Assembly (NCBI GenBank): GCA_016215455.1
Contig: JACRJP010000004.1
Span: forward strand, 21,132 to 85,131
Length of the DNA stretch: 64,000 nucleotides
From: Candidatus Tayloriibacteriota bacterium
Lineage (GTDB): Bacteria > Patescibacteriota > Minisyncoccia > Phycocordibacterales > PALSA-1337
Direction: 5' to 3'
Both the position numbers and the translations under genes were made by a program. Positions 1,914-35,503 of this stretch are shown piece after piece. The first letter of the stretch is position 1, and every line of letters begins with the position of its first letter. Below the pieces are notes generated by a model. The model was not told the origin of the DNA, made no database searches, and was given only the letters and a program-made list of their open reading frames with translations.

Positions 1914-1964
1914 TCCTCGGTTACTGGTATAGTGGTGAGAACGTCCTAACCATTCCACACTACA

Positions 1965-4562: not shown

Positions 4563-4593
4563 AAAAACAAACAAAAGTATACTGGGTAGCATC

Positions 4594-5136: not shown

Positions 5137-5209
5137 ACATGAGATTGTGGTTTTCAAGCCAACTCTGTATACTATTGAAGCACTAATATAGAATCTGTCA
5201 AGGAATACT

Positions 5210-6439: not shown

Positions 6440-6456
6440 TATAATGATTGTCATAT

Positions 6457-7422: not shown

Positions 7423-7466
7423 AAAAAAGAAGGTAGAATGTTTTGCGTTATAGTATGTGCTGTATT

Positions 7467-7539
7467 GGGCCCTTAGCTTAGTTGGTAGAGCGCCTCATTT
7501 GCAATGAGGAGGTCGCCGGTTCGAATCCGGCAGGGTCCA
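7467..7539 (+). tRNA. tRNA-Cys (anticodon GCA). The CCA tail is not encoded.
   Basis: It folds as a cloverleaf: acceptor GGGCCCT/AGGGTCC, anticodon stem CCTCA/TGAGG, loop TTGCAAT, T-arm GCCGG-TTCGAAT-CCGGC. Confidence 0.85.
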
Positions 7540-7568
7540 CAAAACAAATCGGTAGAGCAAATAATATT

Positions 7569-8225: not shown

Positions 8226-8231
8226 TTTCTA

Positions 8232-8268
8232 GATGAGGTTGCTGGTTCGAATCCGGCAGAGTCTATAA
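8232..8268 (+). repeat. Degenerate direct repeat of the 3' half of tRNA-Cys (an att-like site).
   Basis: gatgagg..ttgctGGTTCGAATCCGGCAGagtctat aligns with tRNA positions 7505-7540. The 16 nt GGTTCGAATCCGGCAG match exactly. Both copies are followed by aaaa. Confidence 0.7.
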
Positions 8269-8314
8269 AATATCTCTCCTATACTAATCTTGGTTTTAAT
8301 GATTAAATTATAGT

Positions 8315-9403
8315 ATGAAAAAAATCATTTGGTCTGCAGTTGTTGTTATTATAATTGTGATAGGTTGGTTATTTACTAACAACAAACAGTCTAAATTAGT
8401 AACTAGTCACTCAATTAAGATTGGTGTCATAGCTCCACTTTCTGGCCCTCTAGCAGAATACGGAGAAGCATTTCAGAATGGTATCATCCTTGCGCAAGAG
8501 AAACTTAAGAATAACAAACTCCAATTTGTTTTTGAGGATAGTGCATATGACTCAGGTAAGGCAATTGCTGCTTTTAACAAGCTAAAAGATTTTGATAAGG
8601 TAAATGTGATTATCAACTGGGGTGATCCTACATCGCAAGCCATTGCACCTCTTGTGAAAACTAATTCGATTCCTTTTATCGCGGTGACAACTATTCCATC
8701 AGTTGCTGAACAAAGTCCGTATATCATCAGAACCCTAAATCGTTCAGAAGACGCGGCGGGAGCAACTTGGGAATATTTAAGGTCAAAAAACTTTAAAAAT
8801 GTTGGTATTGTAAAGCTTGAAACACCGTATTTTAATAGTCTTGTAGATTCGCTTATCAAGACAAAACAAACTGACGAAAAAGTTACTATTATTGATACCT
8901 ATCTTTCATTTGGTGATAAAGATTTCAGAACATCGATTAGTAAAATAAAAAATACATCGAAGTATGATGTTATTGGTGTATTCCTTGCGGGAGGTCAAAT
9001 CAGCCAGTTTTATAAACAGGCAAGTACTCTCGAAATGAAAACTCCTACATTTGGGACGGATTTTTTTGAAAGTCAGAGTGATATTGATGCCGCAGGAACA
9101 ACTATGAATGGAGTGGTGTATGTAAACTATGATGTTTCAGATGATTTTAGAACTGAATATCAAAATAGATTCAAAAATATAAGCCAAATTGCATACGCTG
9201 GTAATGGGTACGATACTGTAATGATGCTTAATAGTATTCCAGACGCAGATAAAGATTCAGTTATTAATACTCTTAAGGCTGTAAAAGATTACTCGGGAGT
9301 AGTTGGAAAATGGAATTTACTCGAAACAACCACTGATCGCTATCTTTCATCACCGTTCCATATAAAAATTATCCAGGACGGGATAATAAAAACTCTTAAT
9401 TAA
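8315..9403 (+). CDS. ABC transporter substrate-binding protein, type-1 periplasmic binding fold, resembling Leu/Ile/Val-binding proteins.
   Basis: An N-terminal TM or signal anchor is followed by IGVIAPLSGPLAEYGEAFQNG, characteristic of the Peripla_BP_6/LivJ family. Confidence 0.7.
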   Translation: MKKIIWSAVVVIIIVIGWLFTNNKQSKLVTSHSIKIGVIAPLSGPLAEYGEAFQNGIILAQEKLKNNKLQFVFEDSAYDSGKAIAAFNKLKDFDKVNVIINWGDPTSQAIAPLVKTNSIPFIAVTTIPSVAEQSPYIIRTLNRSEDAAGATWEYLRSKNFKNVGIVKLETPYFNSLVDSLIKTKQTDEKVTIIDTYLSFGDKDFRTSISKIKNTSKYDVIGVFLAGGQISQFYKQASTLEMKTPTFGTDFFESQSDIDAAGTTMNGVVYVNYDVSDDFRTEYQNRFKNISQIAYAGNGYDTVMMLNSIPDADKDSVINTLKAVKDYSGVVGKWNLLETTTDRYLSSPFHIKIIQDGIIKTLN

Positions 9404-9568
9404 GAGTGTGCATATCTATATTTGACAAGTCTACAATATATAGTATTGTAATTTACATGACTTTTTACGGGTCAAACCAAATAAATAACCTCAACCGATC
9501 ACACTCATCTTTGTGTGAAAGCGGGCATTTGTGGCGTTCTGAGTACTAACATCTATTTTCAGTATTTT

Positions 9569-9590
9569 AAACGCCACATATGTGGCGTTT
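9569..9590. promoter_or_regulatory. Perfect 22 bp palindrome, probably an operator. It lies about 35 bp upstream of the ABC exporter start.
   Basis: AAACGCCACATATGTGGCGTTT. A half-site copy ATTTGTGGCGTT occurs again at 9527-9538. Confidence 0.45.
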
Positions 9591-9627
9591 AATTTTTGCT
9601 CTTTAACTTCAACAGAAAGGTGTCCGT

Positions 9628-11394
9628 GTGAAAAAAAGATTCATTACCAACCCTGTCGGCTACCTCTTTGATAAAGTATGGAGGTATTCTGAGGGTAATC
9701 GACGCAAAGTTGCGATATTCTGGTGTATGTTCACACTTGCAAGCGTTGTTTCTCTCGTCTCACGACCATATGTCATGTCAAAAGTGATGAACATTGTTCA
9801 GACTGAGGGAATACATCCGAACAATCTTCCACGACTCATGTGGCTTCTTGTAGGGGTATTCATGTGCTCCGTCGCGTTCTGGATATTACATGGCCCTGCA
9901 CGGGTTATGGAACAGAACAATGCTTTTCTCCTCAGATTAAATTACCGAAAGTTTTTCTTGTGGGGAGTTACGCATTTGCCCATGCAATGGCATTCAGATC
10001 ACCACTCGGGTGATACCATTGATCGCATAGAAAAGGGAACGGGTGCGCTCTACCTATTCGCAAGTGATTCTTACGAATTGTTGTATACGTTCGTAAAACT
10101 CATTGTATGCTATGGAGTCCTTACCTACTTTAACCCCACAGCGGGATTGATAGCATTGTTTTTCATTGTCATATCGGCGATGATCACTATCAAAATTGAT
10201 TCGATACTCGTCAAGAACTATACGATACTTGCTCGTGGAGAAAACACCGCAAGCAAAGGGGTATTCGACATGTTGTCGAATATCACAACGGTCATCATCC
10301 TACGTGTCGAAAAACATGTTTTTGATGCGGTGATCAGTAAGATACGCGCACAAACCGAACTTACCTCACAAACAAACCGACTCGCAGAATTTAAGTGGTT
10401 CCTTACGAGCCTCTGCTGCGCCGGAATGAGTGTGAGTGTGCTCGCGAGTTATATGTATACTCAATCAAAAAGCAGTATTCCTGTGTTGATTGGGTCTGTG
10501 TATCTTTTGCTTGCATATTTGGATAATGTTGATGAAGTGTTCTATCGCTTCACCAGCTTCTACTCAAATATCGTCAAATGGAGGGTGCGTGCAAACAATG
10601 CAGAAGAACTTGCGGTAGATTTTTCTCCCCATGACTTTGACAGCGATAAGCTGCCAGACGATTGGCAGAATATTGATATTAGAGGTCTTTCCTTTGCCTA
10701 CCAAGGCTCAGGAGTTGATCAGCTTAACAATATCAACCTTCAGTTACATCGGGGTAGCAAAGTCGCATTGATTGGTGTAAGTGGTGGTGGAAAAACCACG
10801 CTTCTCAAAGTCATACGCAATCTATATGAACCACGTAGTGGTGAGGTGAGGGTTGACGGAAGACTTTGTCAAAATTGGTTTGGAGACTTCAGTGAATCAG
10901 TGGCATTACTGCCACAGAATCCTGAAATTTTCGACGCAACAGTCTTACACAACATAACTCTTGGTGCAGATTATCCAATGGAACTTATTCAGCAAGCCAT
11001 GAAAGTGGCATGCTTTGATGAGGTTCTTCCTAATCTTCCTCGAGGTCTTGAATCTTTAGTGAACGAGAAGGGGGTAAATCTCTCCGGTGGACAGAATCAA
11101 CGCCTCGCATTAATACGCGGAATTCTTGCATCTGGTGATAAGCCGGTAGTGTTACTCGACGAGCCGACAAGTAGTCTCGATATGGTGACTGAACACAAAG
11201 TGTTTGAACGCCTGTTTAAGCTATTCGAAGGAAAGCTTATCATTTCAACACTCCACCGTTTACATCTACTGCCGCTATTTGATCACATTGTGCTTTTTGA
11301 TGACGGTCGGATTATCGCACAAGGTTCACTTGAACATCTGTTGGAGACGTGCCCACAATTTCAGTATATGTGGAAGATGCACGGAGGGGAATAA
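9628..11394 (+). CDS. ABC transporter with fused permease and ATP-binding domains (type I exporter half-transporter).
   Basis: The N-terminal half is a 6-TM domain. Walker A is GVSGGGKTT, the signature is LSGGQNQR, and Walker B is VVLLDEPTSSLD. The start is GTG after GAAAGG. Confidence 0.85.
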   Translation: MKKRFITNPVGYLFDKVWRYSEGNRRKVAIFWCMFTLASVVSLVSRPYVMSKVMNIVQTEGIHPNNLPRLMWLLVGVFMCSVAFWILHGPARVMEQNNAFLLRLNYRKFFLWGVTHLPMQWHSDHHSGDTIDRIEKGTGALYLFASDSYELLYTFVKLIVCYGVLTYFNPTAGLIALFFIVISAMITIKIDSILVKNYTILARGENTASKGVFDMLSNITTVIILRVEKHVFDAVISKIRAQTELTSQTNRLAEFKWFLTSLCCAGMSVSVLASYMYTQSKSSIPVLIGSVYLLLAYLDNVDEVFYRFTSFYSNIVKWRVRANNAEELAVDFSPHDFDSDKLPDDWQNIDIRGLSFAYQGSGVDQLNNINLQLHRGSKVALIGVSGGGKTTLLKVIRNLYEPRSGEVRVDGRLCQNWFGDFSESVALLPQNPEIFDATVLHNITLGADYPMELIQQAMKVACFDEVLPNLPRGLESLVNEKGVNLSGGQNQRLALIRGILASGDKPVVLLDEPTSSLDMVTEHKVFERLFKLFEGKLIISTLHRLHLLPLFDHIVLFDDGRIIAQGSLEHLLETCPQFQYMWKMHGGE

Positions 11395-20901: not shown

Positions 20902-23900
20902 ATGAATCCTTACGACCACTCATACGTCGAAAAGAAATGGCAAAAAGAATGGGCCAAGAAGAAAATTTACACCACTAAAGAAAAGGGAAAGAAGTTCTAT
21001 GTTCTCGACATGTTTCCATATCCTTCAGGAGAAGGTCTCCATGTTGGACACCCAAAGGGATACATTGCAACTGATGTCATTTCTCGTATGAAGCGTATGC
21101 AGGGTCATAATGTTCTTCATCCTATGGGCTTTGATGCTTTCGGTCTTCCTGCAGAGAACTACGCAATCAAGATGAAAACAAACCCGATGATCTCGGTTGC
21201 AGAAAACATTGAACGATACAAACAACAACTCGAAATTCTCGGTTTTGACTATGATTGGTCACGCGAGATCAATACAACTGATCCAAAATACTATAAATGG
21301 ACACAATGGATTTTCAAAAAACTTCACGAAAAGGGGTTGGCATATGAATCATATGAACCTATCAACTGGTGTCCTTTTGATAAGACAGGGTTGGCAAATG
21401 AGGATGTTGAAGATGGTCGTTGTGAACGTTGTGGCACACTTGTAGAGAAAAAACCTCTTCGTCAGTGGGTACTTCGTATTACAGACTACGCAGAGCGTCT
21501 TCTTGCTGATCTTGATGCAAAAGATGTAAATGGTACACCTCTCCTTGATTGGCCAGAATCAATCAAAGAGGCTCAAAGAAATTGGATAGGTAAGAGCGAA
21601 GGTGCAGAAATTGAATTCGCTATCGATATACACGGTGAACCTTCTACGGAAAAGATAAAGGTATTTACCACTCGACCCGACACACTGTTCGGTGTCACCT
21701 ATGTCGTACTCGCTCCTGAACATGCTTTTGTTCAAAAACTCATTGAACAATCTCCAAACAAACAATCACTTCTCGATTACATCACTGCGACTAAAAACAC
21801 TTCACAGATTGATCGTACGGATGCTAAAAAAGAAAAAACTGGTGTTGAAATTACAGGAGTATCTGCAATTAATCCTGCAAACGGTACAAAAGTTCCTGTT
21901 TGGATCGCTGACTATGTGCTTGCTGACTACGGTACAGGTGCGGTCATGGCCGTCCCAGCGCATGACGAACGTGATTGGGTCTTTGCGAAAAAATACAATC
22001 TTCCCATCATCGATGTTGTAACACCGATCGAAGGAGAACCTCATGCTGGTTCAGAATTCCGTAAAACAATCTCAGCGATTGTACACCGAAAGAGTGATAA
22101 TAAATTTCTTGCTCTCAAATGGAAGAAGTTCGGTTGGACATCAGTACCAGTTGGAGGTATAGAAGGGGATGAATCACCTGAAATAACAGCAGAACGTGAG
22201 GTTCTTGAAGAGACTGGATATGTCACAAAAGCTGTACGCACACTCGGTGGTACAGTAGAGTCACATTTCTTTGCTGAGAATAAGAATGTTTGGCGAGCAC
22301 GAGTTGATCAACCAGTTCTTCTTGAACTTGTTGATGAAAATAAAAAAGAAGTTGCTGTCGATGAACTTGAAAAGCATGAATGTGTTTGGCTCACCTCTGA
22401 AGAACTTCTCAAACAAATTACTCATCGTTACAATGCAATTGGTCTTGAACGCTTTATAGCCAAGAATGATGCATACACCGAAGCTGGCAAACTCATCAAT
22501 TCAGGAAAATTTGATGGTCTACGATCAGAAGAAGCAAAGAAAAAGATTACAACCGCAGTTGGAGGAAATTGGGTTACAAAATATAAACTTCGTGACTGGG
22601 TTTTCTCACGCCAACGATATTGGGGTGAACCGTTCCCGATTATTCACTGTGAGAAACATGGTGTTGTCCTTGTTCCTGAAAAAGAATTACCTGTCGAGCT
22701 TCCAAAAGTTGAATCATACGAACCAACAGGTACCGGTGAATCACCTCTTGCTGGTATTTCAGAATGGGTGAATACAAAGTGTCCTCAGTGTATTGCTGAT
22801 AAAAAGAAACCACACTATCTCATCTTTGATTTTGATGGAGTTCTTGGTGATACATGGACTGCAACACTTAAAGCAAAAGTATTGATGGGAGATAGCAAAA
22901 CAGAAGAAGAGGCTCAACAGGCAATCCTCGAATATTTTGATAAAAAACCATTTCACGCAAAAAACGTCCCTATTACACAAGAGAAATCGAACGCCGCGAC
23001 TAAATGGAGCAGAGACTTTGGAGAAAAAATGGCAACGATTGATTTTGATCTCTTCCATGAATTCATCAAAGAAATCAAAAAATATAAGAAAGTAAAAATT
23101 GCTGTAGTTTCATCAGGATCACGCCAATATGTGATCAAAGCAATGAAAAAATCAGGTCTCAAACCGACCCATATTCTCGCATTCGAAGATAGTCACTCAA
23201 AAGAAGAGAAGATCGAGCGTATTTGTAAGGACTGGAAAGTGGATGTAAAGGATATATATTACTTCACCGATACAAAAGCTGATGTCTACGAGCTTGAAGA
23301 TCTACTTGATCGAAACAAACTCATTGGTTGTGCTTGGGGTTATCAAGGTTTTACAAAACTCAATGAAGTTCTTCCTGATAAACAGATTCTCAAAGACTTC
23401 GCTGATATTCATCGCATTCTTAATATAGAATGTTCAGGGAAGCGCGAAACAAATACCATGCCACAATGGGCAGGTTCATCATGGTATCACCTCCGCTATA
23501 TGGATCCTACGAACAAAAAAGTACTCGTCGATCCTAAAAAAGAGAAATTCTGGAACTCTGTTGATCTCTACGTAGGTGGAGCTGAACATGCAACACGACA
23601 CCTTATCTACGCTCGTTTTTGGCACAAATTCTTATATGATATCGGGGTAGTATCGACAATTGAACCATTCTCAAAACTTCAATCCGTTGGTCTCATCATG
23701 GCAGAAGATGGTCGTAAGATGTCAAAACGTTTCGGTAATGTTGTAAATCCCGATGAAATTGTTCGTATCTACGGAGCCGATACATTGCGTCTCTATGAAA
23801 TGTTCATGGGTCCATTTGATCAAGCGATTAGTTGGAGTACCGATAGTATGGTTGGCTCACGAAGATTCATTGAGCGTGTATGGAAGATGGGCCACAAAGT

Positions 23901-24405
23901 ACTTACACAACCTCTATCACAAAAAGATGGTTCAACACTGACTCCAAGTGCTCGCACCGCACTTCATAAAGCAATTAAAAAGGTAGGAGAAGATATTGAA
24001 GACTTCCGTTTCAACACAGCAATCAGTACACTCATGATTACCTTGAATGAACTTGAAAAGGAAGCGATCGTGTCTCGTTCAGATTTTGAAGTATTTCTTA
24101 AATTAGCAGCTCCGTTCATACCACACGTTGCAGAAGAATTATGGAATGAATTAGGTAATAAGAAATCAATTCATCTCTCTGAATGGCCAACACACAATCC
24201 TGAATATCTTGTAGAAGCGGAAATAAAGATTGTCGTTCAAATAAATGGAAAGGTTCGAGCAACATTCACAACGGAAAAGGGAACAAGCGACGAAACCCTT
24301 CAAGAGACTGCTTTAAACCTCCCAGAGACCAAAAAATGGCTCAATGGTGGAACCCCTAAAAAAGTCATTATTATCAAAGAAAAGCTCGTAAATATCGTAA
24401 TATAG
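20902..24405 (+). CDS. leuS: Leucine--tRNA ligase with two inserted domains, one Nudix-like and one HAD-like.
   Basis: HVGH (HIGH) and KMSKR (KMSKS) are present. The editing domain shows TTRPDTLFG...VPAHDERD. At 1167 aa it is far longer than the roughly 820-880 aa of a typical bacterial LeuRS. The two inserts lie at aa ~375-525 and ~636-848. Confidence 0.97.
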   Translation: MNPYDHSYVEKKWQKEWAKKKIYTTKEKGKKFYVLDMFPYPSGEGLHVGHPKGYIATDVISRMKRMQGHNVLHPMGFDAFGLPAENYAIKMKTNPMISVAENIERYKQQLEILGFDYDWSREINTTDPKYYKWTQWIFKKLHEKGLAYESYEPINWCPFDKTGLANEDVEDGRCERCGTLVEKKPLRQWVLRITDYAERLLADLDAKDVNGTPLLDWPESIKEAQRNWIGKSEGAEIEFAIDIHGEPSTEKIKVFTTRPDTLFGVTYVVLAPEHAFVQKLIEQSPNKQSLLDYITATKNTSQIDRTDAKKEKTGVEITGVSAINPANGTKVPVWIADYVLADYGTGAVMAVPAHDERDWVFAKKYNLPIIDVVTPIEGEPHAGSEFRKTISAIVHRKSDNKFLALKWKKFGWTSVPVGGIEGDESPEITAEREVLEETGYVTKAVRTLGGTVESHFFAENKNVWRARVDQPVLLELVDENKKEVAVDELEKHECVWLTSEELLKQITHRYNAIGLERFIAKNDAYTEAGKLINSGKFDGLRSEEAKKKITTAVGGNWVTKYKLRDWVFSRQRYWGEPFPIIHCEKHGVVLVPEKELPVELPKVESYEPTGTGESPLAGISEWVNTKCPQCIADKKKPHYLIFDFDGVLGDTWTATLKAKVLMGDSKTEEEAQQAILEYFDKKPFHAKNVPITQEKSNAATKWSRDFGEKMATIDFDLFHEFIKEIKKYKKVKIAVVSSGSRQYVIKAMKKSGLKPTHILAFEDSHSKEEKIERICKDWKVDVKDIYYFTDTKADVYELEDLLDRNKLIGCAWGYQGFTKLNEVLPDKQILKDFADIHRILNIECSGKRETNTMPQWAGSSWYHLRYMDPTNKKVLVDPKKEKFWNSVDLYVGGAEHATRHLIYARFWHKFLYDIGVVSTIEPFSKLQSVGLIMAEDGRKMSKRFGNVVNPDEIVRIYGADTLRLYEMFMGPFDQAISWSTDSMVGSRRFIERVWKMGHKVLTQPLSQKDGSTLTPSARTALHKAIKKVGEDIEDFRFNTAISTLMITLNELEKEAIVSRSDFEVFLKLAAPFIPHVAEELWNELGNKKSIHLSEWPTHNPEYLVEAEIKIVVQINGKVRATFTTEKGTSDETLQETALNLPETKKWLNGGTPKKVIIIKEKLVNIVI

Positions 24406-24483: not shown

Positions 24484-25533
24484 ATGGCCCCAATCACGTT
24501 TAAACCAAAGCAAACAACAAAGCGTCTTCTCGCAGTTCTTCCTGAACGAGCACGAGACGTACTTGTACATCGCTATGGTTTAGGCAAAAGTGATGAACGA
24601 ATGACTCTTGATGCGATTGGAAAGCTCTATGGTATCACTCGTGAACGTGTTCGACAGATCGAAAATTACGCAATTAATAATATTCGAAAATCAGACGCAT
24701 ATAAGTCTGAGAAGTCTGCATTCGCTGAACTCGAAGAAGTACTTCATTCTCTTGGAGGAATTATCGTTGAAGATGATCTCTTTGCACATCTTTCAAAGGA
24801 TATAGCAACTCAAAATCATATTCACTTCCTCCTTGTTCTTGGTGAATCATTTAAGAAACGAAAAGAAGATGGTGAATTTAAGCATCGATGGCATGTAAGC
24901 GACGAACTCGCTAAAAAGGTTGAAGATTCTCTCCGTAAACTCTATGAAGGACTTGGTGACCAAGATCTTCTTCCAGAATCAGAGATTGTTAATGCTTTCC
25001 TTGATCACGTTAAGGAACTTTCTGAGAAATACAAGAACCAAGAAATTCTCAAGCGATGGTTGTCACTTTCAAAGCGTGTAGGTAAGAACCCTATGGGAGA
25101 TTGGGGAGTTTCTCACTCATCAAACATCAAGACTAAGGGTATGCGTGACTATGCATTCCTTATCATCCGAAAGCATGGTTCTCCGATCCACTTCCGTGAA
25201 GTAGCAAAAAATATCGAAAAGATATTTAAGAAAAAGGCTCACGTAGCAACATGTCACAACGAACTCATCAAGGATCCTCGATTCGTTCTTGTTGGACGAG
25301 GTCTCTATGCTCTTGCTGAATGGGGATACATGAGTGGTGTCGTTAAAGATGTTATTAAGAAGATTCTTGATAAGAATGGTCCTCTTACAAAAGATGAGAT
25401 CATCGATAAAGTTCTCAAAGAACGTTACGTAAAGGAAAACACCATCATGGTAAACCTCCAGAATCAGAGATTCTTCAAAAAAGACAAAGAGGGACGTTAC
25501 TCAATCATCGAGACAGCACAAATCGAAAAGTAA
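24484..25533 (+). CDS. Protein with an N-terminal sigma-70 region-4-like HTH and an unknown C-terminal domain.
   Basis: RARDVLVHRYGL...TLDAIGKLYGITRERVRQIENYAINNIRK resembles RpoD region 4. Confidence 0.6.
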   Translation: MAPITFKPKQTTKRLLAVLPERARDVLVHRYGLGKSDERMTLDAIGKLYGITRERVRQIENYAINNIRKSDAYKSEKSAFAELEEVLHSLGGIIVEDDLFAHLSKDIATQNHIHFLLVLGESFKKRKEDGEFKHRWHVSDELAKKVEDSLRKLYEGLGDQDLLPESEIVNAFLDHVKELSEKYKNQEILKRWLSLSKRVGKNPMGDWGVSHSSNIKTKGMRDYAFLIIRKHGSPIHFREVAKNIEKIFKKKAHVATCHNELIKDPRFVLVGRGLYALAEWGYMSGVVKDVIKKILDKNGPLTKDEIIDKVLKERYVKENTIMVNLQNQRFFKKDKEGRYSIIETAQIEK

Positions 25534-25586: not shown

Positions 25587-26867
25587 ATGGAATTTGCTAC
25601 TCTTTTCAATGAGCTTAATCAGCAATTGCACTCAGACATCATCCCTCAGGTGATTTCTATCGTCGCAAATAGTGCACCACTTTGGCTCCCAATTATTCTT
25701 TGGAAAATATTTTGGCCTCTATGGGTTGACTATGTGCGTGCAGAATACTTTCTCAGTGAAGCGTATACACTGCTTGAAATAAAGCTTCCCAAAGAAACTC
25801 TCAAATCTCCTCTAGCGATGGAACTTTTCCTCACATCACTTCACCAGACAAGTGGTGAAGGAAACCTCTACGATAAGTTTTGGCTTGGTAAAACTCGACC
25901 ATGGTTTTCTCTTGAAATCGTATCCATCGAAGGTGACGTGCATTTCTTTATATGGATGAGAAAATCATGGAAAAATTTTATTGAATCATCTCTCTATGCT
26001 CAATTCCCAGGAATAGAAATATACGACCGTGAACATAGTGACTATGCACGTGCACTTCATTTTGATGGAAAGACAATGGCTGCATGGCCATGTGAACTCG
26101 AACTTACAAAACCGGATCCATATCCAATCAAGACATATGTTGACTATGGTCTCGATAAAGATCCTAAAGAGGAATTTAAAGTTGATCCCCTTGCTCCTTT
26201 GATTGAATTTCTTGGTTCAATGGGTGCAAATCAGCAGATATGGATTCAGATCATTGTACGTGCTCACAAATCAGAACGTCTTAAGGCTGGACATTTCTTT
26301 AAATACGAAGATTCATGGAAAGAAGATGCAAAGAAAGAAATCAACACCATACTCGTACGTGATGCAAAAACAAAAGTTGCAGGAACTGAAAATGAACAAG
26401 GTTTTCTTGTATCACCAACTATAACTAAAGGTGAGCAGGATGTCGTTGCTGCTCTTGAACGTTCTCTTACAAAACAAGCGTTTGATGTTGGTATTCGAGG
26501 TATATACATTGCTAATAAAAAAGAATTTTTCAGTAAATCAAACATCAGTGGACTTACAGGGTCTTTCAAACAGTTTAGTTCAGAACATTTAAATGGTTTC
26601 AAACCAAATGGAAGTGTATGGGGACCATCATTTAGTTTTCCATGGCAGGACTTTAGAGATTATCGAAAAAATAGGATGATTTCTCGTTTCCTTGCTGCAT
26701 ATCGACGACGAGCATTTTTCTTTCCACCAGAGGTGGGGAAGGCAATGGTCCTCAATACTGAAGAATTAGCAACTATCTTCCATTTCCCAGGCCAAGTAGC
26801 AGCTGCACCAACTTTGACACGTATTGGTTCAAAGAAGTCAGAAGCTCCGTCAAACCTCCCTATATAA
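25587..26867 (+). CDS. Hypothetical protein of 426 aa.
   Basis: A long ORF with no recognised motif. It overlaps the mltG start by a few nt. Confidence 0.55.
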   Translation: MEFATLFNELNQQLHSDIIPQVISIVANSAPLWLPIILWKIFWPLWVDYVRAEYFLSEAYTLLEIKLPKETLKSPLAMELFLTSLHQTSGEGNLYDKFWLGKTRPWFSLEIVSIEGDVHFFIWMRKSWKNFIESSLYAQFPGIEIYDREHSDYARALHFDGKTMAAWPCELELTKPDPYPIKTYVDYGLDKDPKEEFKVDPLAPLIEFLGSMGANQQIWIQIIVRAHKSERLKAGHFFKYEDSWKEDAKKEINTILVRDAKTKVAGTENEQGFLVSPTITKGEQDVVAALERSLTKQAFDVGIRGIYIANKKEFFSKSNISGLTGSFKQFSSEHLNGFKPNGSVWGPSFSFPWQDFRDYRKNRMISRFLAAYRRRAFFFPPEVGKAMVLNTEELATIFHFPGQVAAAPTLTRIGSKKSEAPSNLPI

Positions 26868-27880: not shown

Positions 27881-28975
27881 ATGAATATTCCTCGAGGGAA
27901 CAATCAAAAAGTATATGTTGGTATGTCAGGTGGAGTTGATAGCTCTGTCTCTGCGGCGCTACTTAAAGAAGCTGGGTACGATGTCACTGGTGTGTTCATC
28001 AAGGTATGGCAACCTGATTGGGTAACCTGTACATGGAAAGAAGATCGTCTTGATGCTCTCCGTGTAGCTGCACAGCTTGATATTCCTTTCATAACCCTTG
28101 ATCTTGAAGCTGACTACAAAAAACATGTTGTCGACTATATGGTAAGCGAATATACCGCAGGACGAACCCCTAACCCTGATGTAATGTGTAATAAGTACGT
28201 TAAGTTCGGAGCATTTTTCGATTGGGCAATCAAACAAGGCGCTGACTATGTAGCAACAGGACACTATGCGCAAACAGTTACACGTGCTGATGGAACATAT
28301 CTTGCTAAAGGAAATGACCCGACTAAAGATCAATCATATTTCCTTTGGACACTACACAGTACTCATCTCAAGAAAACTCTTTTTCCTGTCGGGGATATCG
28401 AAAAAACAGAAGTACGAAAATTAGCACAAAAATTTAAACTTCCGAATGCAACCAAAAAAGACAGTCAAGGGCTTTGCTTCATTGGTAAAGTAGAACTTAA
28501 AGAATTTCTATCTCATTTTGTGACATCTACAAAAGGAAATGTCATATCAGAAACAGGTAAGGTACTGGGAAGTCATGATGGTGCAGTATTTTATACCATA
28601 GGTCAGCGACATGGCTTTACCGTCGATCAATCTTCACCAAATGAACTTCCATATTTTGTGATTAATAAAAATATTGATCAGAATACTATTACCGTATCAC
28701 ATGATGATCCTCGATCTCTCGTACATTCACCAACACTTTGGAAAGTAATTCGTCTACACAATACTCTTTGGTCGAATAATCCTCCTCAAGAAGGGAAGGT
28801 GTACCAGGTACGTGCTCGGTATCGTCAAGAACTCGTTGAGTGTGTATTCAAGAAGATTGTCGGCCAAGAGAATGAGTGGCTTGCAGAAGTATCTCAACCA
28901 CTAGGTGCTACACCAGGACAGTCACTCGTCGTATACGATCAAAATATCTGTATTGGCGGTGGTAGTATCATCTAG
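27881..28975 (+). CDS. mnmA: tRNA-specific 2-thiouridylase MnmA.
   Basis: The PP-loop is VGMSGGVDSSV. Catalytic Cys residues are present. Confidence 0.93.
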   Translation: MNIPRGNNQKVYVGMSGGVDSSVSAALLKEAGYDVTGVFIKVWQPDWVTCTWKEDRLDALRVAAQLDIPFITLDLEADYKKHVVDYMVSEYTAGRTPNPDVMCNKYVKFGAFFDWAIKQGADYVATGHYAQTVTRADGTYLAKGNDPTKDQSYFLWTLHSTHLKKTLFPVGDIEKTEVRKLAQKFKLPNATKKDSQGLCFIGKVELKEFLSHFVTSTKGNVISETGKVLGSHDGAVFYTIGQRHGFTVDQSSPNELPYFVINKNIDQNTITVSHDDPRSLVHSPTLWKVIRLHNTLWSNNPPQEGKVYQVRARYRQELVECVFKKIVGQENEWLAEVSQPLGATPGQSLVVYDQNICIGGGSII

Positions 28976-28988
28976 TATACTTGGAGGC

Positions 28989-29591
28989 ATGAATAAGCGA
29001 GATTCTCTCAAAAAAATCGAAGACAAACTACGTGTTTTGAAAGAATCTCCTCTCTACGAATATCGCACAACAAACAACTACTTTCCTGTTGCAGGTGAAG
29101 GTAGTCATGATGCAACTATTATGTTCGTAGGTGAGGCTCCAGGACGCAATGAAGCCAAAACAGGACGACCTTTCTGTGGTGCAGCAGGTAAAATTCTCGA
29201 TACTCTGCTTACAAGTGCTGGTATTAAACGAGAAGATGTCTTCATTACTAATATCGTTAAAGATCGACCTCCAGAGAATCGTGACCCGTCTCCACGAGAA
29301 ATAGAAGTATATGGTCCACTTCTTGATCAACAGATAGAGAGTATTCAACCGAAAGTAATCGCAACTCTTGGCCGCTATGCCATGGGATATATCATGAAAA
29401 ACTTCAATCTCGAGGAATCTCTCGAACCTATAGGGAAAGCACACGGAAAAGCATATAAAGCTCAAGCTTCATACGGTCCCATCACTATCATTGCACTCTA
29501 CCATCCTTGTGTTGCGATCTATAACAACAAAACTCTTCCCACACTCACGGCAGATTTTGCAACTCTCGGCAAGTACGCCAATAAAAGCTAA
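28989..29591 (+). CDS. Uracil-DNA glycosylase, family 4.
   Basis: GEAPGRNEAKTGRPFCGAAGKILD and HPCVAIYN. GGAGG lies upstream of the ATG at 28989. Confidence 0.85.
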   Translation: MNKRDSLKKIEDKLRVLKESPLYEYRTTNNYFPVAGEGSHDATIMFVGEAPGRNEAKTGRPFCGAAGKILDTLLTSAGIKREDVFITNIVKDRPPENRDPSPREIEVYGPLLDQQIESIQPKVIATLGRYAMGYIMKNFNLEESLEPIGKAHGKAYKAQASYGPITIIALYHPCVAIYNNKTLPTLTADFATLGKYANKS

Positions 29592-29608
29592 TCTGATATA
29601 CTGTTGCC

Positions 29609-30448
29609 ATGAATCATCCCGTATATATTCTCAAAGCAGATGGAGTTCGAGAACCGTTTGATCCAAGTAAGCTTATTTATTCACTTCACAATGCAGGAGT
29701 TACTGGAAATACCGTTGATGATGTTGTGCAGCATGTACAAACACACATCAAAGATGGAATGACCACTGGTGAAATATACTCATACGCTTTTCACTATCTC
29801 CGTAGTCATTCATTACCAATCGCTCTTCGATATTCACTTCGACGTGCACTTTCAGAACTTGGTCCTAATGGTTTTCCTTTTGAAAAATTTGTTGCTGAGA
29901 TTTTCAAAGCAAAAGGCTACGAGGTACTTACCGATCAAGTAGTACAAGGAGCTTGTGTACAACATGAAATAGATGTCGTTGCATGGAATGACAAAGAACT
30001 CATCATGGTAGAAGCAAAATTTCATAATGAATTTGGCCTCAAATCAGACTTGAAGGTAGCATTGTACATTAAGGCTCGATTTGATGACTTACGACATCAA
30101 ACATTCACATTTGGAGGGAAATCTCGTACCATGACAGACGGCTGGCTTGTGACAAATACAAAATTCACTGATCAAGCTATCAAATATGGTTCATGCCAGC
30201 AACTCAAGATGGTTGGTTGGAACTATCCGCATGGAGCATCACTTCAAGACTTGATTGAAGGTTCAGGACTCCACCCATTTACATGTCTTGGTACGCTCAC
30301 TGCAAATCACAAGAAACAGCTTCTTGATAAAGGGATTATTCTTTGCCGCGACATTAAGAGAAATCCTCATGTTCTTAAGGAAATATCTATGTCAACCGAA
30401 GAGATTGCTAAAGTATTTGCTGAAATTGATACCGTGTGCGGTGCATAA
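29609..30448 (+). CDS. Protein with an ATP-cone domain fused to an Mrr-like (PD-(D/E)xK) restriction-endonuclease fold.
   Basis: The N-terminal VYILKADGVREPFDPSKL... is an ATP-cone. The C-terminal FEKFVAEIFKAKGYEV...EIDVVAW...IMVEAKFH gives the D...E.K core. Confidence 0.7.
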   Translation: MNHPVYILKADGVREPFDPSKLIYSLHNAGVTGNTVDDVVQHVQTHIKDGMTTGEIYSYAFHYLRSHSLPIALRYSLRRALSELGPNGFPFEKFVAEIFKAKGYEVLTDQVVQGACVQHEIDVVAWNDKELIMVEAKFHNEFGLKSDLKVALYIKARFDDLRHQTFTFGGKSRTMTDGWLVTNTKFTDQAIKYGSCQQLKMVGWNYPHGASLQDLIEGSGLHPFTCLGTLTANHKKQLLDKGIILCRDIKRNPHVLKEISMSTEEIAKVFAEIDTVCGA

Positions 30449-30461
30449 GTAACATTACACT

Positions 30462-31247
30462 ATGTCTGATTACTACATGGCAAAAAAGACACGGGGCATC
30501 TACTCTCCTTCATCGAGTGAGCCTTTTCGTTTGTCTCGTTCAAAAATTGATCTCTTCACTGAATGTCCTCGATGTTTCTACCTTGATCGTAGACTTGGAG
30601 TAGGACGTCCGCCTGGATTTCCTTTTACCCTGAATAGTGCTGTTGATGCGCTTCTCAAAAAAGAATTCGATATTCATCGAAAAGCTCAATCATCACATCC
30701 TCTCATGGAACAATATGCTGTAGATGCAGTACCATTTCAACATAAAGACATGGAAATTTGGCGTGAAAACTTTAAAGGTGTACAAGCGATCCATGAACCA
30801 ACCAATTTTCTCATCACAGGAGCAGTTGATGATGTATGGATTAATCCTAAACAAGAGCTCATTGTTGTAGACTATAAATCAACAAGTAAGGATACTGAAG
30901 TAAATCTTGATGCTGAATGGCAGGATGGCTACAAACGACAAATGGAAGTCTATCAATGGCTTCTACGCCAAATTGGATTCGAAGTTTCTTCTACTGGCTA
31001 CTTTGTCTATGCAAATGGACAAAAAGATCGTAAAGCCTTTGATGGTAAGCTTGAATTTGATATTACCCTCATTCCATACACAGGATCGGATGACTGGATT
31101 GAACCAACTCTAAAGACCATCAAGGCATGTCTTGATGATGATCGAGTACCACTAGCAGGTGAGCATTGTGACTATTGTGCCTACCGCCAAGCAGCAGGTG
31201 AGTCTCTTCGTGATGCAGTTACTGGAACAAAGGCAAAAAAGAAATAG
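30462..31247 (+). CDS. PD-(D/E)xK nuclease with a four-Cys cluster, Cas4/RecB-like.
   Basis: CPRCFYL ... IVVDYKS ... GEHCDYCAY. Confidence 0.65.
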   Translation: MSDYYMAKKTRGIYSPSSSEPFRLSRSKIDLFTECPRCFYLDRRLGVGRPPGFPFTLNSAVDALLKKEFDIHRKAQSSHPLMEQYAVDAVPFQHKDMEIWRENFKGVQAIHEPTNFLITGAVDDVWINPKQELIVVDYKSTSKDTEVNLDAEWQDGYKRQMEVYQWLLRQIGFEVSSTGYFVYANGQKDRKAFDGKLEFDITLIPYTGSDDWIEPTLKTIKACLDDDRVPLAGEHCDYCAYRQAAGESLRDAVTGTKAKKK

Positions 31248-31263
31248 TACTAAACGACAACAT

Positions 31264-33111
31264 ATGAAAATAACTCCCGCACTCCAAAAGAAAAGTAATA
31301 AAGAATTTCTTGATATTCTCAACAAGACGCTTCGCAAACTTCACACGACATATGAAAATGCTTTTTGGCGTTTTAATATGGGAGAAGCAAAGTATGCAAA
31401 AATCCAAGACACAGCACTTGCGGCACGAGATCACTTTTCAGGAAGTATTGAAATATTAAACGAGGTACAACGCCGTCTTGTACAAGCAAAAGGAGTTGAA
31501 AAAAATCGACTGATGTATTGGCAACGATACTTCAAGAAAAACACAACGCCACCTGAGGTTCGAGAGCTCCGTGCAAAAATAGCTGAGCTTGAGAGTAAGG
31601 TTGCTGTCATCCGAGGTACACGAAAAGAAGGATATATTGATCCAACTACAGGTCTATTCGTCGAAGCGTCAGAACTTGCACTACGAGGACTTGTACGCAC
31701 ATCACCTGATGAAGCTATTCGTAAGGCATGTTTTGAGGCTACAGAAAAACTTATTTCAACAACCATCAATGAATATGTTGAGCTAGTGCAACTTCGAAAT
31801 AAATTTGCACAACAACTTGGTTTTTCTGATTTCTATGCATACAAAGTTGATGGTGATGAAGAAATGAGTACTTCTGAACTTTTTGCTATATTCGATCCGA
31901 TATACAACCAAACAAAATACGTTTTTGATACTATCCGTCAACTTGAAAAAGAAAAACCAGGTCTGCGCAAACCATGGAACTTTAATTACATGATGGCAGG
32001 TAATTTTACCAAAGAAGAAGATCCATATTTCCAATTTGATCAAGCTCTCCCTATGTGGGCAAAAACATTTGCTGCACTTGGTATAGATTTTAAAGGAGGA
32101 ACAATCACTCTTGACCTTCTTGATCGAAAAGGAAAAACAAATAATGGTTTCTGCCACTGGCCTCGCACAGTAGCATATAAAAAGAATCGTAGGATACCTG
32201 GTGCAAGTAATTTCACTTGTACTCTTGTTCCAGGTCAGATAGGGGAAGGAAGTAACGGCCTTCACACACTCTTTCATGAAGGTGGTCATGCAGCACACCT
32301 CCTCAACTCAGAAGAACGTGATGTGTGTAACAGTCATGAATACGCACCTATGTCGATGTCCTGGGCTGAGACCCAATCAATGTCGATGGATAGTATCTCA
32401 AGCAGTATTGAGTGGCGTATAAGATATGCAAAAAATAAAGAGGGTGCTCCGTATCCATTCGAACTTTTTGAAAGAAAAACTAAGGCACTAGCACCTCTTC
32501 TTCCGCTCGGTATGATGAGTATGCTTGCGATGATGTCATTTGAACGAAATGTGTATGAATATCCAAGCGATACACTCACAGCAGAGAAAGTAATGGAATT
32601 TGCGCGTGAAGCTTCAAAAAAATATTTTGATCGAGATGGTGATTCTCATTGGCCTCTTAGTGTATTTCATATTTACTCATGGGATAGTGCTGCTAATTAC
32701 TACGGATACGCTTTAGCAGACATCGTTGTTGCTCAATGGAGAGATTATTTCTATAAAAAATATGGATATATTGTTGATAATCCAAAAGTAGGAAAAGAAA
32801 TGGCAAAAGTATGGAAGTTTGGTGGTCGCTATTCAACAAAGGAATTTGTACGTACAGCAATGAATACTGAATTCAATGTTCAACCATATATAGATTCAAT
32901 TACTCGTACAGTGCCCGAACGTATCACTCTTGCACAAGAACGCATTGCGCGCCTCGCAAAGGTAAAACCGTATACAAAACCAATAGATTTAAAAGCAAAA
33001 ATCACTCTTGTACATGGTCGTAAAAAGATAGCTGACAACAGTAAAGGTTTTGATGCAATGACCAAAAAATACGCAGCGTGGCTTAAGAAACAAGAACCTA
33101 AAAGTAAGTAA
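31264..33111 (+). CDS. M3-family metallo-oligopeptidase, oligoendopeptidase F-like.
   Basis: The zinc motif is HEGGHAAH. I trimmed the start to MKITPALQ. Confidence 0.8.
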   Translation: MKITPALQKKSNKEFLDILNKTLRKLHTTYENAFWRFNMGEAKYAKIQDTALAARDHFSGSIEILNEVQRRLVQAKGVEKNRLMYWQRYFKKNTTPPEVRELRAKIAELESKVAVIRGTRKEGYIDPTTGLFVEASELALRGLVRTSPDEAIRKACFEATEKLISTTINEYVELVQLRNKFAQQLGFSDFYAYKVDGDEEMSTSELFAIFDPIYNQTKYVFDTIRQLEKEKPGLRKPWNFNYMMAGNFTKEEDPYFQFDQALPMWAKTFAALGIDFKGGTITLDLLDRKGKTNNGFCHWPRTVAYKKNRRIPGASNFTCTLVPGQIGEGSNGLHTLFHEGGHAAHLLNSEERDVCNSHEYAPMSMSWAETQSMSMDSISSSIEWRIRYAKNKEGAPYPFELFERKTKALAPLLPLGMMSMLAMMSFERNVYEYPSDTLTAEKVMEFAREASKKYFDRDGDSHWPLSVFHIYSWDSAANYYGYALADIVVAQWRDYFYKKYGYIVDNPKVGKEMAKVWKFGGRYSTKEFVRTAMNTEFNVQPYIDSITRTVPERITLAQERIARLAKVKPYTKPIDLKAKITLVHGRKKIADNSKGFDAMTKKYAAWLKKQEPKSK

Positions 33112-33128: not shown

Positions 33129-33542
33129 TCAAGCATTCCACTCAAGATCAAGACGAGACTCGGGAGGAGGATGCCGAAACCGCCTATCCTTCTGTTGTAG
33201 ACGAAGGCCAATTACGTCAATGATGTCAGACGGGGTATAGTTCAACAAAATTGCTACCGGAATGACCTTTGGAAACATAGCGGCATACAGCTTATTAAAC
33301 TTCCTTACACCCCATGGAGAAGACTTGATCTGCAGTGGTATTTCACCAAAAGGTGTATTGAGCCAAATATCTGTTTTTAAATCCATGTCATCTCTTAGAC
33401 TACCTTTTCGAGCACCCAAAAGCCAAAAAGGTTTGTCGGGGGATGTCATCGTATCCATTAAGGCAGCAAGAGCTCTTCGTTCGGTTTCTTCACCAATCCG
33501 CAAACTTTCAAGATCATCGGCTTCAAAAGAAAAATCGGCCAT
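33129..33542 (-). CDS. Hypothetical protein.
   Basis: 137 aa ORF on the minus strand. Confidence 0.4.
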   Translation of the reverse strand: MADFSFEADDLESLRIGEETERRALAALMDTMTSPDKPFWLLGARKGSLRDDMDLKTDIWLNTPFGEIPLQIKSSPWGVRKFNKLYAAMFPKVIPVAILLNYTPSDIIDVIGLRLQQKDRRFRHPPPESRLDLEWNA

Positions 33543-33613: not shown

Positions 33614-35503
33614 GTGTGCTATATTTTCTCCATGAATTCCCACGAGATCCGCAAAAAATACCTCGATTTTTATGCTTCAAAAAAGCATACCATCATCCCG
33701 TCTTCATCACTTGTTCCTGATAACGATCCTACAACTCTCTTTACTGGATCAGGAATGCAACCTCTCATTCCATATCTTCTTGGAGCAAAGCATCCACAAG
33801 GAACACGTCTTGTTGACTCACAGAAATCTTTCCGTAGTGGTGACATCGAAGATATTGGGGATAATCGCCATACAACATTTTTTGAAATGCTTGGTAACTG
33901 GTCACTTGGTGACTATTTCAAAAAAGAACAACTCCCGTGGGTATTTGAATTTCTCATTGACCATGTAGGGCTCGATCCCAAGAAACTTTACGTTACCGTC
34001 TTCATCGGGGATGAAAAAAATAATCTTCCTCGTGATACTGATTCAGTGGCCATTTGGAAAGATCTTTTTGCACAAAAAGGAATTGAGGCAAAGGATGTAG
34101 AAATGGGAAGTGAAGCGGAAGCGGCCGAAAAAGGCATGCAGAATGGCCGTATTTTCTACTATGACGGTAAGAAAAACTGGTGGTCACGTTCAGGTGAGCC
34201 AAGTAAAATGCCAGCAGGTGAACCAGGTGGTCCTGACTCTGAGTTGTTCTATGAATTCGACTTCGTACAACACGATCCAAAATTTGGTACACATTGTCAT
34301 CCAAATTGTGACTGTGGTCGTTACCTTGAAATCGGTAACTCAGTATTCATGGAATACAAAAAGAATGCCGACGGAACATTTTCAAAACTTCCACAACAAA
34401 ACGTTGACTTCGGTGGAGGGCTTGAACGTATTGCAATGGCGTCAGTATATTCTTCAGATATTTTTGATATTGATCTTCTCAAGGGAATCGTAACAACTCT
34501 TGAATCTCTTTCAGGGAAGTCATATAAAGATGCTGCATACACTGCAGCTTTCCGTGTTGTAGCCGACCATATTCGATCTGCCACATTTCTCATCGGAGAT
34601 GGAGTAAGTCCATCAAATAGTGAACGTGGATATTTTGTCCGACGACTTCTTCGACGAGCTATTCGCTTCTGGGATACACTTGGTATTGCAAACGGTGGAC
34701 TCTCACAAATTGTTCTTCCTCTTTTAGAGAAATATAAAGAAGCATATCCTGAAACATACGCACAATCAGCTCGTATCATCACAGAAATCGATACTGAAGA
34801 GAAAAAATTCCGAGCAACACTTCGCCAAGGCCTTAAAGAATTTGAAAAACTTGCTCAGAATAAACAAATCAGTGGTGAACAGGCCTTCGCACTCTTTTCA
34901 AGTTATGGTTTTCCTATAGAAATTACTCTTGAGCTTGCAAAGGAAAAGAATATTACCGTCGATCGTGAAGCTTTTGATACTGAAATGAAAAAACACCAGG
35001 ATCTCTCACGTGCTGGATCTGAAAAGAAATTCAAAGGAGGGCTTGCAGACACAAGTGAGATGTCACTTAAGTATCATACCGCTACACATCTTTTGAATGC
35101 GGGTCTTCGTGCTGTACTCGGAAATCATATTGGTCAAAAGGGAAGTAATATCACTCCTGAACGTCTTCGTTTTGATTTCAATCATGTTACAAAACTCACT
35201 GATGAAGAAAAAAAGAAGGTGGAAGATTTTGTTAACGAGGCAATTGCACGTAAACTTCCTGTTTCATGGAAAGAGATGCCAAAGACTGAAGCAGAAAAGC
35301 TTGGAGCAATTCATGCATTCGGAGAAAAATATGGTGACATTGTAAAGGTATACAGTGTTGGAGATGAGACAACTGGAGTACTCAGTCGTGAATTTTGTGG
35401 AGGACCACATGTGGAAAACACAGGGGTACTTGGTCACTTCAAAATAGCTAAAGAAGAGGCCGTATCTGCTGGGGTACGACGCATCAAGGCGGTGTTGGAG
35501 TAG
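33614..35503 (+). CDS. alaS: Alanine--tRNA ligase, short form: catalytic, tRNA-recognition and editing domains without the C-Ala domain.
   Basis: FTGSGMQP, GNWSLGDYFK, and the editing HxxxH...CxxxH region (HTATHLL, CGGPHV). It is 629 aa. The start could instead be ATG 33632. Confidence 0.9.
   Translation: MCYIFSMNSHEIRKKYLDFYASKKHTIIPSSSLVPDNDPTTLFTGSGMQPLIPYLLGAKHPQGTRLVDSQKSFRSGDIEDIGDNRHTTFFEMLGNWSLGDYFKKEQLPWVFEFLIDHVGLDPKKLYVTVFIGDEKNNLPRDTDSVAIWKDLFAQKGIEAKDVEMGSEAEAAEKGMQNGRIFYYDGKKNWWSRSGEPSKMPAGEPGGPDSELFYEFDFVQHDPKFGTHCHPNCDCGRYLEIGNSVFMEYKKNADGTFSKLPQQNVDFGGGLERIAMASVYSSDIFDIDLLKGIVTTLESLSGKSYKDAAYTAAFRVVADHIRSATFLIGDGVSPSNSERGYFVRRLLRRAIRFWDTLGIANGGLSQIVLPLLEKYKEAYPETYAQSARIITEIDTEEKKFRATLRQGLKEFEKLAQNKQISGEQAFALFSSYGFPIEITLELAKEKNITVDREAFDTEMKKHQDLSRAGSEKKFKGGLADTSEMSLKYHTATHLLNAGLRAVLGNHIGQKGSNITPERLRFDFNHVTKLTDEEKKKVEDFVNEAIARKLPVSWKEMPKTEAEKLGAIHAFGEKYGDIVKVYSVGDETTGVLSREFCGGPHVENTGVLGHFKIAKEEAVSAGVRRIKAVLE

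Follow-up and report, generated by a model that had tools for sequence, protein, structure and literature searches.

The 64-kb stretch of a Candidatus Taylorbacteria metagenome-assembled genome (MAG) analysed here, which we refer to as the window, encodes a 279-amino-acid (aa) protein in which an N-terminal ATP-cone is joined to an Mrr-like nuclease core and a C-terminal helical domain. Its gene (the focal gene) lies on the plus strand in a row with those for a family-4 uracil-DNA glycosylase (UDG), a Cas4-like PD-(D/E)xK nuclease and an M3 metallopeptidase. We conclude that the four do not form a functional module and simply follow one another in a long co-directional array on a compact Patescibacteria chromosome; about a dozen genes occur as alternatives in a variable stretch, the UDG, Cas4-like and M3 genes being three of them, and the focal gene is an ordinary member of a large, slowly evolving and vertically inherited family. 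From sequence comparison and analogy we judge it on balance probable that the nuclease of this family is set by ATP or dATP through the cone and acts in DNA maintenance or nucleotide recycling. The initial annotation of the region had read the four genes as either a compact defence module or an unusual repair operon; its observations were confirmed, and its interpretation is partly supported. The four genes are:

28989-29591, plus strand: family-4 UDG gene (open reading frame [ORF] with profile matches)
29609-30448, plus strand: ATP-cone/Mrr-like nuclease gene, the focal gene (279 aa, three domains)
30462-31247, plus strand: Cas4-like PD-(D/E)xK nuclease gene (261 aa, PDDEXK_1)
31264-33111, plus strand: M3 metallopeptidase gene (ATG start; PF01432 match and HEGGH motif)

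All four ORFs are present on the plus strand as first reported, with intergenic gaps of 17, 13 and 16 nucleotides (nt) in the order listed, and the UDG gene begins 13 nt beyond the end of the gene for the tRNA 2-thiouridylase MnmA; an alternative GTG start of the M3 gene at 31159 would make it overlap the preceding gene. Nearly all genes of the window are on this strand, and the four belong to a co-directional run that extends from the leucyl-tRNA synthetase (LeuRS) gene at 20902 to the end of the M3 gene at 33111 and resumes with the alanyl-tRNA synthetase (AlaRS) gene, the sole break being a minus-strand ORF at 33129-33542. Other same-strand gaps of less than 20 nt are common across the window. 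Because nearly the whole window is on one strand and short gaps are frequent, the co-orientation and tight spacing of the four genes are not distinctive. Matches to promoter and terminator consensus sequences are no commoner in the window than in shuffled controls and are uninformative about transcription units.

The domains of the focal protein are encoded as follows:

29624-29851, plus strand: ATP-cone domain (residues 6-81), with I7, K9, G12, E15, F17 and K21 in the ligand-binding register of NrdR
29873-30223, plus strand: PD-(D/E)xK nuclease core (residues ~89-205)
30236-30445, plus strand: AF1548-like C-terminal helical domain (residues ~210-279), of the helix-hairpin-helix (HhH)/SAM-like DNA-binding type

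Both halves of the ATP-cone and Mrr-like fusion score above their profile cut-offs, the ATP-cone (PF03477) at 32.2 bits against 25.8 and Mrr_cat (PF04471) at 33.4 bits against 21, so that the assignment of the cone held up in profile searches, and the motif HEIDVVAW…VEAKFH is present in the translation. The nuclease core has the restriction-endonuclease fold, and the N-terminal region has the beta-hairpin and four helices of an ATP-cone. Residues 93-278 are homologous to Archaeoglobus fulgidus AF1548 (PDB 1Y88; E=1e-32), a match that covers the core and the C-terminal helical domain together, and the AF1548-like_C model (PF22357) scores 28.4 bits in the close homolog P0028. An AlphaFold2 model of the focal protein built on a 41-sequence alignment has a predicted local distance difference test value (pLDDT) of 88 and a predicted template-modelling score (pTM) of 0.80. 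A family profile of the N-terminal region (89 positions) matches ATP-cone proteins only among natural PDB entries (NrdD, E 0.004; NrdR, 0.012; NrdA, 0.03-0.08). The family profile is required for this, as a PDB search with the cone region as a single sequence returns no cones and only weak methionine-aminopeptidase matches, and in PHROGs the cone gives only a weak match to the large subunit of ribonucleotide reductase (RNR). The top matches of the N-terminal profile are designed helical repeats, which hold no qualifying stretch and were set aside as composition artefacts.

The predicted active site of the nuclease is complete. E92, D122 and E135-x-K137 are invariant in two family alignments (A1 and A2) spanning 34-67% identity, as are C116, H119, E120, H139, N183 and C196, and focal D122, E135 and K137 align with AF1548 D38, E51 and K53, which are predicted to be catalytic (PMC1821046). 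These residues bear on the idea that the protein is a non-catalytic, nucleotide-responsive DNA-binding regulator, an analogue of NrdR that keeps the nuclease fold for binding only; with E92, D122, E135 and K137 invariant family-wide we consider this very improbable, an inactivated nuclease being unlikely because the complete catalytic set is invariant.

The cone is well preserved at the positions expected to contact nucleotide. Its pattern in the window protein, I7-x-K9-x5-E15-x-F17-x3-K21, has spacing identical to that of V48, K50, E56, F58 and K62 of NrdR, the residues needed for nucleotide binding in the Streptomyces coelicolor protein (PMC9110341), and the hidden Markov model register places focal position 9 on NrdR K50/K53. 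K9, G12, F17 and K21 are kept at 90% or more family-wide. E15 is conserved in the Patescibacteria members and is Ala in those of Bacteroidota, and at R10 in the canonical KR(D)G motif of cones the family has Ala. The architecture that the initial annotation had described, a nucleotide-sensing cone fused to a nuclease, is borne out to this extent, with cone contacts kept in Patescibacteria and catalytic residues invariant throughout, and the focal sequence may fairly be read as an intact nuclease joined to a predicted intact ligand pocket.

The family is large. By word-indexed search, 3,578 clusters at 90% identity were retrieved, and the 120 best are all ~280 aa long and 57-67% identical to the query, the named ones among them coming from Patescibacteria MAGs. 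A HMMER search against 1.84 billion 50%-identity representatives gave 1,154 clusters, including 464 with E<1e-30 that are of about 280 aa and nearly all full length, with matches beginning at residues 1-7 in nearly all of them. Members also occur in cultured Bacteroidota (Chitinophaga spp. and Flavihumibacter fluvii), where NCBI names them 'ATP cone domain-containing protein' or 'restriction endonuclease'. The three-domain architecture is already catalogued in public annotation and is uncharacterised; literature searches combining ATP-cone with restriction endonuclease, Mrr, endonuclease or defence, whose coverage excluded the original ATP-cone paper, found no study of the fusion. Two homolog clusters (P0014 and P0034; locus L004) are ~445 aa long, an upstream PemK/MazF-type toxin ORF reading in frame into the normal MNHL… start; we rejected the PemK domain as a family feature, since a toxin gene has been inserted between MnmA and the nuclease gene and is joined to it by read-through.

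The nuclease also evolves slowly. Its median identity to the window protein in the loci compared is 55.7%, against 52.6% for MnmA and 48.8% for AlaRS, and it is the more conserved protein in 57 of 67 loci when set against MnmA and in 42 of 50 when set against AlaRS. It is more conserved than MltG in all 57 loci compared and than the DUF8128 protein in 52 of 56.

Gene order was compared in 80 loci from species-representative genomes and 80 metagenomic loci, at 43-64% identity to the query, together with a few reached through specific proteins. The window proteins were searched by tblastn against the first 80, and ORFs were clustered over 164 loci. Both approaches recover the same order: LeuRS, a sigma-like protein (Sigma70_r4 plus HARE-HTH), DUF8128, MltG, MnmA, the ATP-cone nuclease, a variable stretch, AlaRS and two conserved hypothetical genes. 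In Paceibacteria the nuclease gene has a fixed slot between MnmA and AlaRS, and its syntenic position is constant across 160 loci. MnmA is found by tblastn in 74 of the 80 genome loci; ORF clustering fused MnmA and MltG into one cluster, which lies directly 5' of the nuclease gene in about 104 of 153 loci, and the tblastn count is the cleaner figure. AlaRS is downstream in 90 of 164 loci. The fusion is widespread (over 3,500 clusters), and its fixed place between MnmA and AlaRS is a housekeeping neighbourhood. The flanking genes in the window are:

27881-28975, plus strand: MnmA (PF03054, PF20259 and PF20258)
33632-35503, plus strand: AlaRS (PF01411 and PF07973)

Several features of this block stand on their own. 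The window LeuRS (20902-24405, plus strand) is 1,167 aa long, with NUDIX (residues 388-505, 43.9 bits) and HAD_2 (residues 640-795, 34.3 bits) domains inserted in the synthetase body, and the LeuRS homolog of locus L168 likewise has NUDIX inside tRNA-synt_1. Upstream of MltG are the Sigma70_r4 plus HARE-HTH protein (24484-25533, plus strand; median identity 68%), constant in the syntenic block, and a 426-aa protein (25587-26867, plus strand), also a constant member, whose homologs carry the precomputed annotation DUF8128 (PF26449) and which has no match in the Pfam copy that we searched. The minus-strand ORF between M3 and AlaRS (33129-33542) encodes 137 aa, is seen in no other of the 164 loci and has no match in Pfam, NCBIfam, PADLOC or PHROG; by eye, a D…DIW…QIK pattern in it recalls a PD-(D/E)xK motif. 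In Firmicutes, mnmA, alaS and mltG share a neighbourhood with RuvX and RecD2, and we give no weight to the idea that the ATP-cone nuclease fills that place.

The constancy of MnmA, AlaRS and LeuRS as partners raises the question of whether the enzyme is an RNA-processing nuclease tied to translation, cutting or maturing tRNA or rRNA. MnmA is at position -1 in most loci, the nuclease is conserved on a par with aminoacyl-tRNA synthetases, and a distant candidate phyla radiation (CPR) lineage (L083, 36% identity) retains the adjacency to AlaRS, with the two ORFs overlapping. Against this, Mrr-like cores and HhH-type C-terminal domains typically bind and cut DNA, the Bacteroidota homologs have no translation-gene neighbours, and compact genomes often bring unrelated housekeeping genes together in such blocks; we regard a role in RNA processing as decidedly improbable. 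In the distant locus itself (L083, positions 1492-10695, on a 483-kb contig) the nuclease gene follows those for PilM, two T2SSE ATPases and T2SSF, and its overlap with the start of AlaRS is ~40 nt.

The stretch between the nuclease gene and AlaRS is variable and filled for the most part with housekeeping genes; its main occupants are:

Family-4 UDG (UDG4): 68 of 164 loci, downstream of the nuclease gene in the 67 other than the window, which alone has it upstream (position -1)
Cas4-like nuclease: 43 of 164 loci, 32 of them at position +1
MgtC-family membrane protein: 30 of 164 loci, 28 of them at position +1
PepF-like M3 peptidase (cluster c16): 22 of 164 loci
M3 peptidase of the window type: 21 of 164 loci
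MGMT/Ogt-like DNA_binding_1 protein: 16 of 164 loci
HD/YfbR-like phosphohydrolase: 9 of 164 loci
DUF7282 protein: 7 of 164 loci

An M29 peptidase, an M16 peptidase and PCMT are also among them. When only the 119 loci in which the stretch from the nuclease gene to AlaRS is fully covered (the complete loci) are considered, UDG4 is present in 61, the Cas4-like gene in 31, the window-type M3 gene in 18, the MGMT-like gene in 14 and the YfbR-like HD gene in 7. UDG4, Cas4-like and M3 occur together in just two of these, the window and L159, so the four genes are not co-conserved in related genomes; 33 loci have none of the three, and in 8 AlaRS follows straight after the nuclease gene. Gains and losses counted by the Fitch method on a neighbour-joining tree of the nuclease number 11-18 steps per partner (15 for Cas4-like versus 27.7 in shuffles, and 18 for UDG4 versus 40.1). 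Fewer steps than in shuffled data signify phylogenetic clustering, as inherited synteny would give, and the partner pattern is one of inherited synteny in which genes are often lost, gained or relocated, not of a stable module. Two of the three outcomes that the initial annotation had named as telling against it have thus occurred, the four genes not being co-conserved and the fusion being widespread with a housekeeping neighbourhood.

The nuclease gene and its partners also occur apart. In L166 and L171, both reached through the Cas4-like protein, the ATP-cone gene is just upstream of the Cas4-like gene; in L168 (positions 5001-8809) the block from LeuRS and MnmA to AlaRS carries Cas4-like, UDG and M3 genes in the slot and lacks the ATP-cone nuclease, which is therefore not universal even in the syntenic lineage; and in L169 (Colwellbacteria) the Cas4-like gene has unrelated surroundings. 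Where the Paceibacteria synteny is lacking, the nuclease gene is flanked by genes for polysaccharide deacetylase and TauE in Chitinophaga, for a hydrolase and a DinB-family protein in Flavihumibacter, and for a P-type ATPase and DUF3347 in another Bacteroidota genome; in the distant CPR lineage it is beside type IV pilus genes and AlaRS, and nine further non-syntenic loci have transporters, MgtC, P-type ATPases, PPK2 and others. UDG, Cas4-like, MGMT and M3 genes are not among the neighbours in the non-Paceibacteria or non-syntenic loci that we examined.

These patterns bear on whether the region is a lineage-specific repair cluster, in which the nuclease would work with UDG4, Cas4-like and MGMT-like proteins in Paceibacteria, for example by incising or processing the intermediates left once a base has been excised, while the cone would couple repair to the supply of deoxynucleoside triphosphates (dNTPs). 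Repair-type genes are indeed the commonest in the slot, as the counts for UDG4, Cas4-like, MGMT-like and YfbR-like HD genes show; the Cas4-like gene is often at +1, UDG4, although now upstream, still adjoins the nuclease gene in the window, and the 13-17 nt gaps from MnmA to M3 are compatible with co-transcription. However, 33 of the 119 complete loci have none of UDG4, Cas4-like and M3, and 8 have AlaRS directly adjacent; MgtC, four kinds of peptidase and PCMT share the slot; no repair neighbours accompany the gene in Bacteroidota or the other non-syntenic loci; the three partners persist in L168 without the ATP-cone gene; and the clustering of presence and absence on the tree is what inherited synteny predicts. 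We therefore consider a repair cluster unlikely, and the unusual repair operon first suggested is weakly supported, within this lineage, by the recurrence of UDG4, Cas4-like and MGMT-like genes in the Paceibacteria slot; these are absent from the neighbourhood in other lineages, and each is also found without the other two.

Some associations within and around the slot are worth recording. The tightest pairing is between the Cas4-like gene and the small MGMT/Ogt-like gene (PF01035, PCHRV motif), with 13 of 14 MGMT-like genes adjoining a Cas4-like gene (clusters 11 and 19); the two ORFs overlap by ~30 nt in L166 (5001-5798 and 5767-6111) and in L167, and the MGMT-like gene is missing from the window. 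The MgtC-family gene (cluster c15, for example L039-L048) is the one directly 3' of the nuclease gene in 28 loci, and a CopA-like P-type ATPase gene, in some cases with DUF3347 or a CsoR-type repressor, is one to three genes from it in several unrelated lineages including Bacteroidota. MgtC and CopA-like genes recur across phyla (L036, L131, L144, L147, L149 and L165). In L072, L106 and L141 giant ORFs of 2,168-2,310 aa are located one or two genes downstream of the nuclease gene.

An anti-phage effector, in which the cone would sense the disturbance of nucleotide pools during infection and unleash the nuclease, with the Cas4-like protein and UDG as accessories, was the other suggestion of the initial annotation. 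The focal gene has a fixed position in a housekeeping block in 160 loci, evolves more slowly than MnmA and AlaRS, and has metabolic and transport neighbours in other phyla. In PADLOC the focal protein matches only PDC-S02 (17 bits, E 7e-4) and CARF_PDDEXK (14.7 bits), in both cases through the nuclease core alone, and no relative was confirmed in 2.9 million viral contigs, which were scanned with two peptide patterns. There are no methyltransferase genes, cas genes or CRISPR arrays near the four genes, the initial annotation having already noted the lack of arrays and cas genes beside the Cas4-like gene; the 64 kb contain no CRISPR array and no notable tandem repeats, and an Rfam scan gives one tRNA-Ala and no further match. 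The searched literature contains no paper tying ATP-cones to defence. The fixed slot, the slow evolution, the lack of a relative among the viral contigs scanned and PADLOC matches of only 15-17 bits lead us to view the focal gene as a vertically inherited housekeeping gene, and the reading of the region as a compact defence module, which finds no convincing defence model, is improbable.

The three neighbouring proteins were otherwise assigned correctly at the outset. The UDG scores 109.8 bits against PF03167 and 183.9 bits against TIGR00758, the family-4 model, whose cut-off is 125.3, and its GEAPG and HPC motifs fit the family-4 patterns GE(A/G)PG and HP(S/A/C). Characterised family-4 UDGs typically have a four-Cys [4Fe-4S] cluster; the window protein has two cysteines, and one cysteine column is conserved (66 of 70 orthologs). 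As judged from these residues, the window UDG is of the family-4 type without the usual four-Cys Fe-S set.

The Cas4-like protein scores 59.7 bits to PDDEXK_1 (PF12705; cut-off 22) and falls below the curated Cas4 cut-offs, narrowly for PF01930 (21.9 against 22.7) and by more for TIGR00372 (29.7 against 65); PADLOC Cas4 models match it at E 1.5e-10, and PHROGs gives generic exonuclease/Cas4 matches. Its translation contains CPRC…DYK…CDYC, the conserved cysteines forming the pattern CxxC…C…CxxC. It does not have the setting of a CRISPR-associated Cas4, its neighbours being the ATP-cone nuclease and M3 genes. The canonical Cas4 cysteine pattern is C…CxxCx5C, from which that of the window protein differs. 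The protein has the same sequence as one that NCBI lists for Candidatus Taylorbacteria, and it has at least 8,000 homologs at ~70% identity, in Patescibacteria. Solo-Cas4 genes without CRISPR have been described in CPR genomes, with 'defense or repair' proposed as their function (Hudaiberdiev et al. 2017, PMC5704561), and the third gene of the window resembles these in being PDDEXK_1/Cas4-like, in a small genome and without CRISPR-Cas.

The M3 peptidase has the HEGGH form of the HExxH zinc motif and matches PF01432 at 77.8 bits (cut-off 27); it is under the cut-offs of PepF and the other NCBIfam subfamilies and has no evident tie to nucleases.

The focal protein can be compared with several known systems. 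In XPF/Mus81/Hef-type endonucleases a nuclease of the restriction-endonuclease fold precedes an HhH-type DNA-binding domain at the C terminus, the same order as in the focal protein. AF1548 shares both the core and the C-terminal helical domain, but is 199 aa long and has no ATP-cone, the match starting at its residue 22; it is a structural-genomics protein whose function was only predicted, in 2007, to be restriction-endonuclease-like (PMC1821046). Mrr and type IV restriction enzymes share the catalytic core, but Mrr has a winged-helix N-terminal reader of modified DNA where the focal protein has the ATP-cone, and occurs in restriction-modification or defence contexts whereas the focal gene is in slowly evolving MnmA/AlaRS synteny. 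Type IV restriction enzymes are, together with Can2, Card1 and NucC, among the closest nuclease folds to the focal core. Can2, Card1 and NucC sense their ligands by a CARF domain or a cyclic triadenylate (cA3) pocket rather than an ATP-cone, and the focal gene is in a housekeeping context with no CRISPR or CBASS (cyclic-oligonucleotide-based anti-phage signalling system) genes. In contrast to NrdR and the RNR proteins NrdA, NrdB and NrdD, the predicted output of the focal cone is a nuclease rather than a Zn-ribbon or reductase, RNR genes are absent nearby, and the usual KRDG motif is altered at R10; ligand binding and oligomeric switching are putative for the focal protein.

In the mechanism that we favour, the C-terminal HhH-type domain would hold the focal protein on duplex DNA and the PD-(D/E)xK core (E92, D122, E135 and K137) would cut it. 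The N-terminal cone would bind ATP or dATP through K9, E15, F17 and K21 and switch the nuclease on or off, probably by a change in oligomeric state, by analogy with NrdR and RNRs (PMC9110341 and PMC11226230). The role would be chromosomal DNA maintenance tied to adenine-nucleotide or dNTP status, such as repair, processing of recombination intermediates or nucleotide recycling, and not phage defence. Several points weigh against this proposal. What is said of substrate and physiological role, as of nucleotide binding and nuclease activity, is for every family member read from sequence, and with R10 replaced by Ala and E15 replaced in Bacteroidota the ligand specificity may differ from that of known cones. 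At least one syntenic locus (L168) lacks the nuclease, so 'core' is only relative. Repair genes are frequent in the slot (UDG4 in 51%, Cas4-like in 26% and MGMT-like in 12% of complete loci), and this, together with UDG4 remaining adjacent after switching sides, makes some functional coupling within Paceibacteria possible. Finally, the nearest folds include the ligand-gated defence effectors Can2, Card1 and NucC as well as type IV restriction enzymes.

The window itself adds little, its focal protein being one of thousands of near-identical architecture that are already named publicly, and solo Cas4-like genes having already been described in CPR genomes. Compact co-directional packing together with inherited synteny accounts for the apparent module, and a false lead to a defence system is removed. 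The family, rather than the locus, is worth experiment, as it combines conservation at the level of aminoacyl-tRNA synthetases in Paceibacteria, cultivable Bacteroidota hosts, a predicted cone site and a complete nuclease site. We propose tentatively, as a possibility that falls short of being probable, that proteins joining an ATP-cone to Mrr-like and HhH domains are ATP- or dATP-gated DNA endonucleases, near-core maintenance or nucleotide-recycling enzymes of Patescibacteria and Bacteroidota. If they are gated endonucleases, theirs would be the first cone shown to control an enzyme that has no part in ribonucleotide reduction, and in nucleotide-auxotrophic CPR cells the cutting of DNA would be tied directly to the (d)ATP pool.

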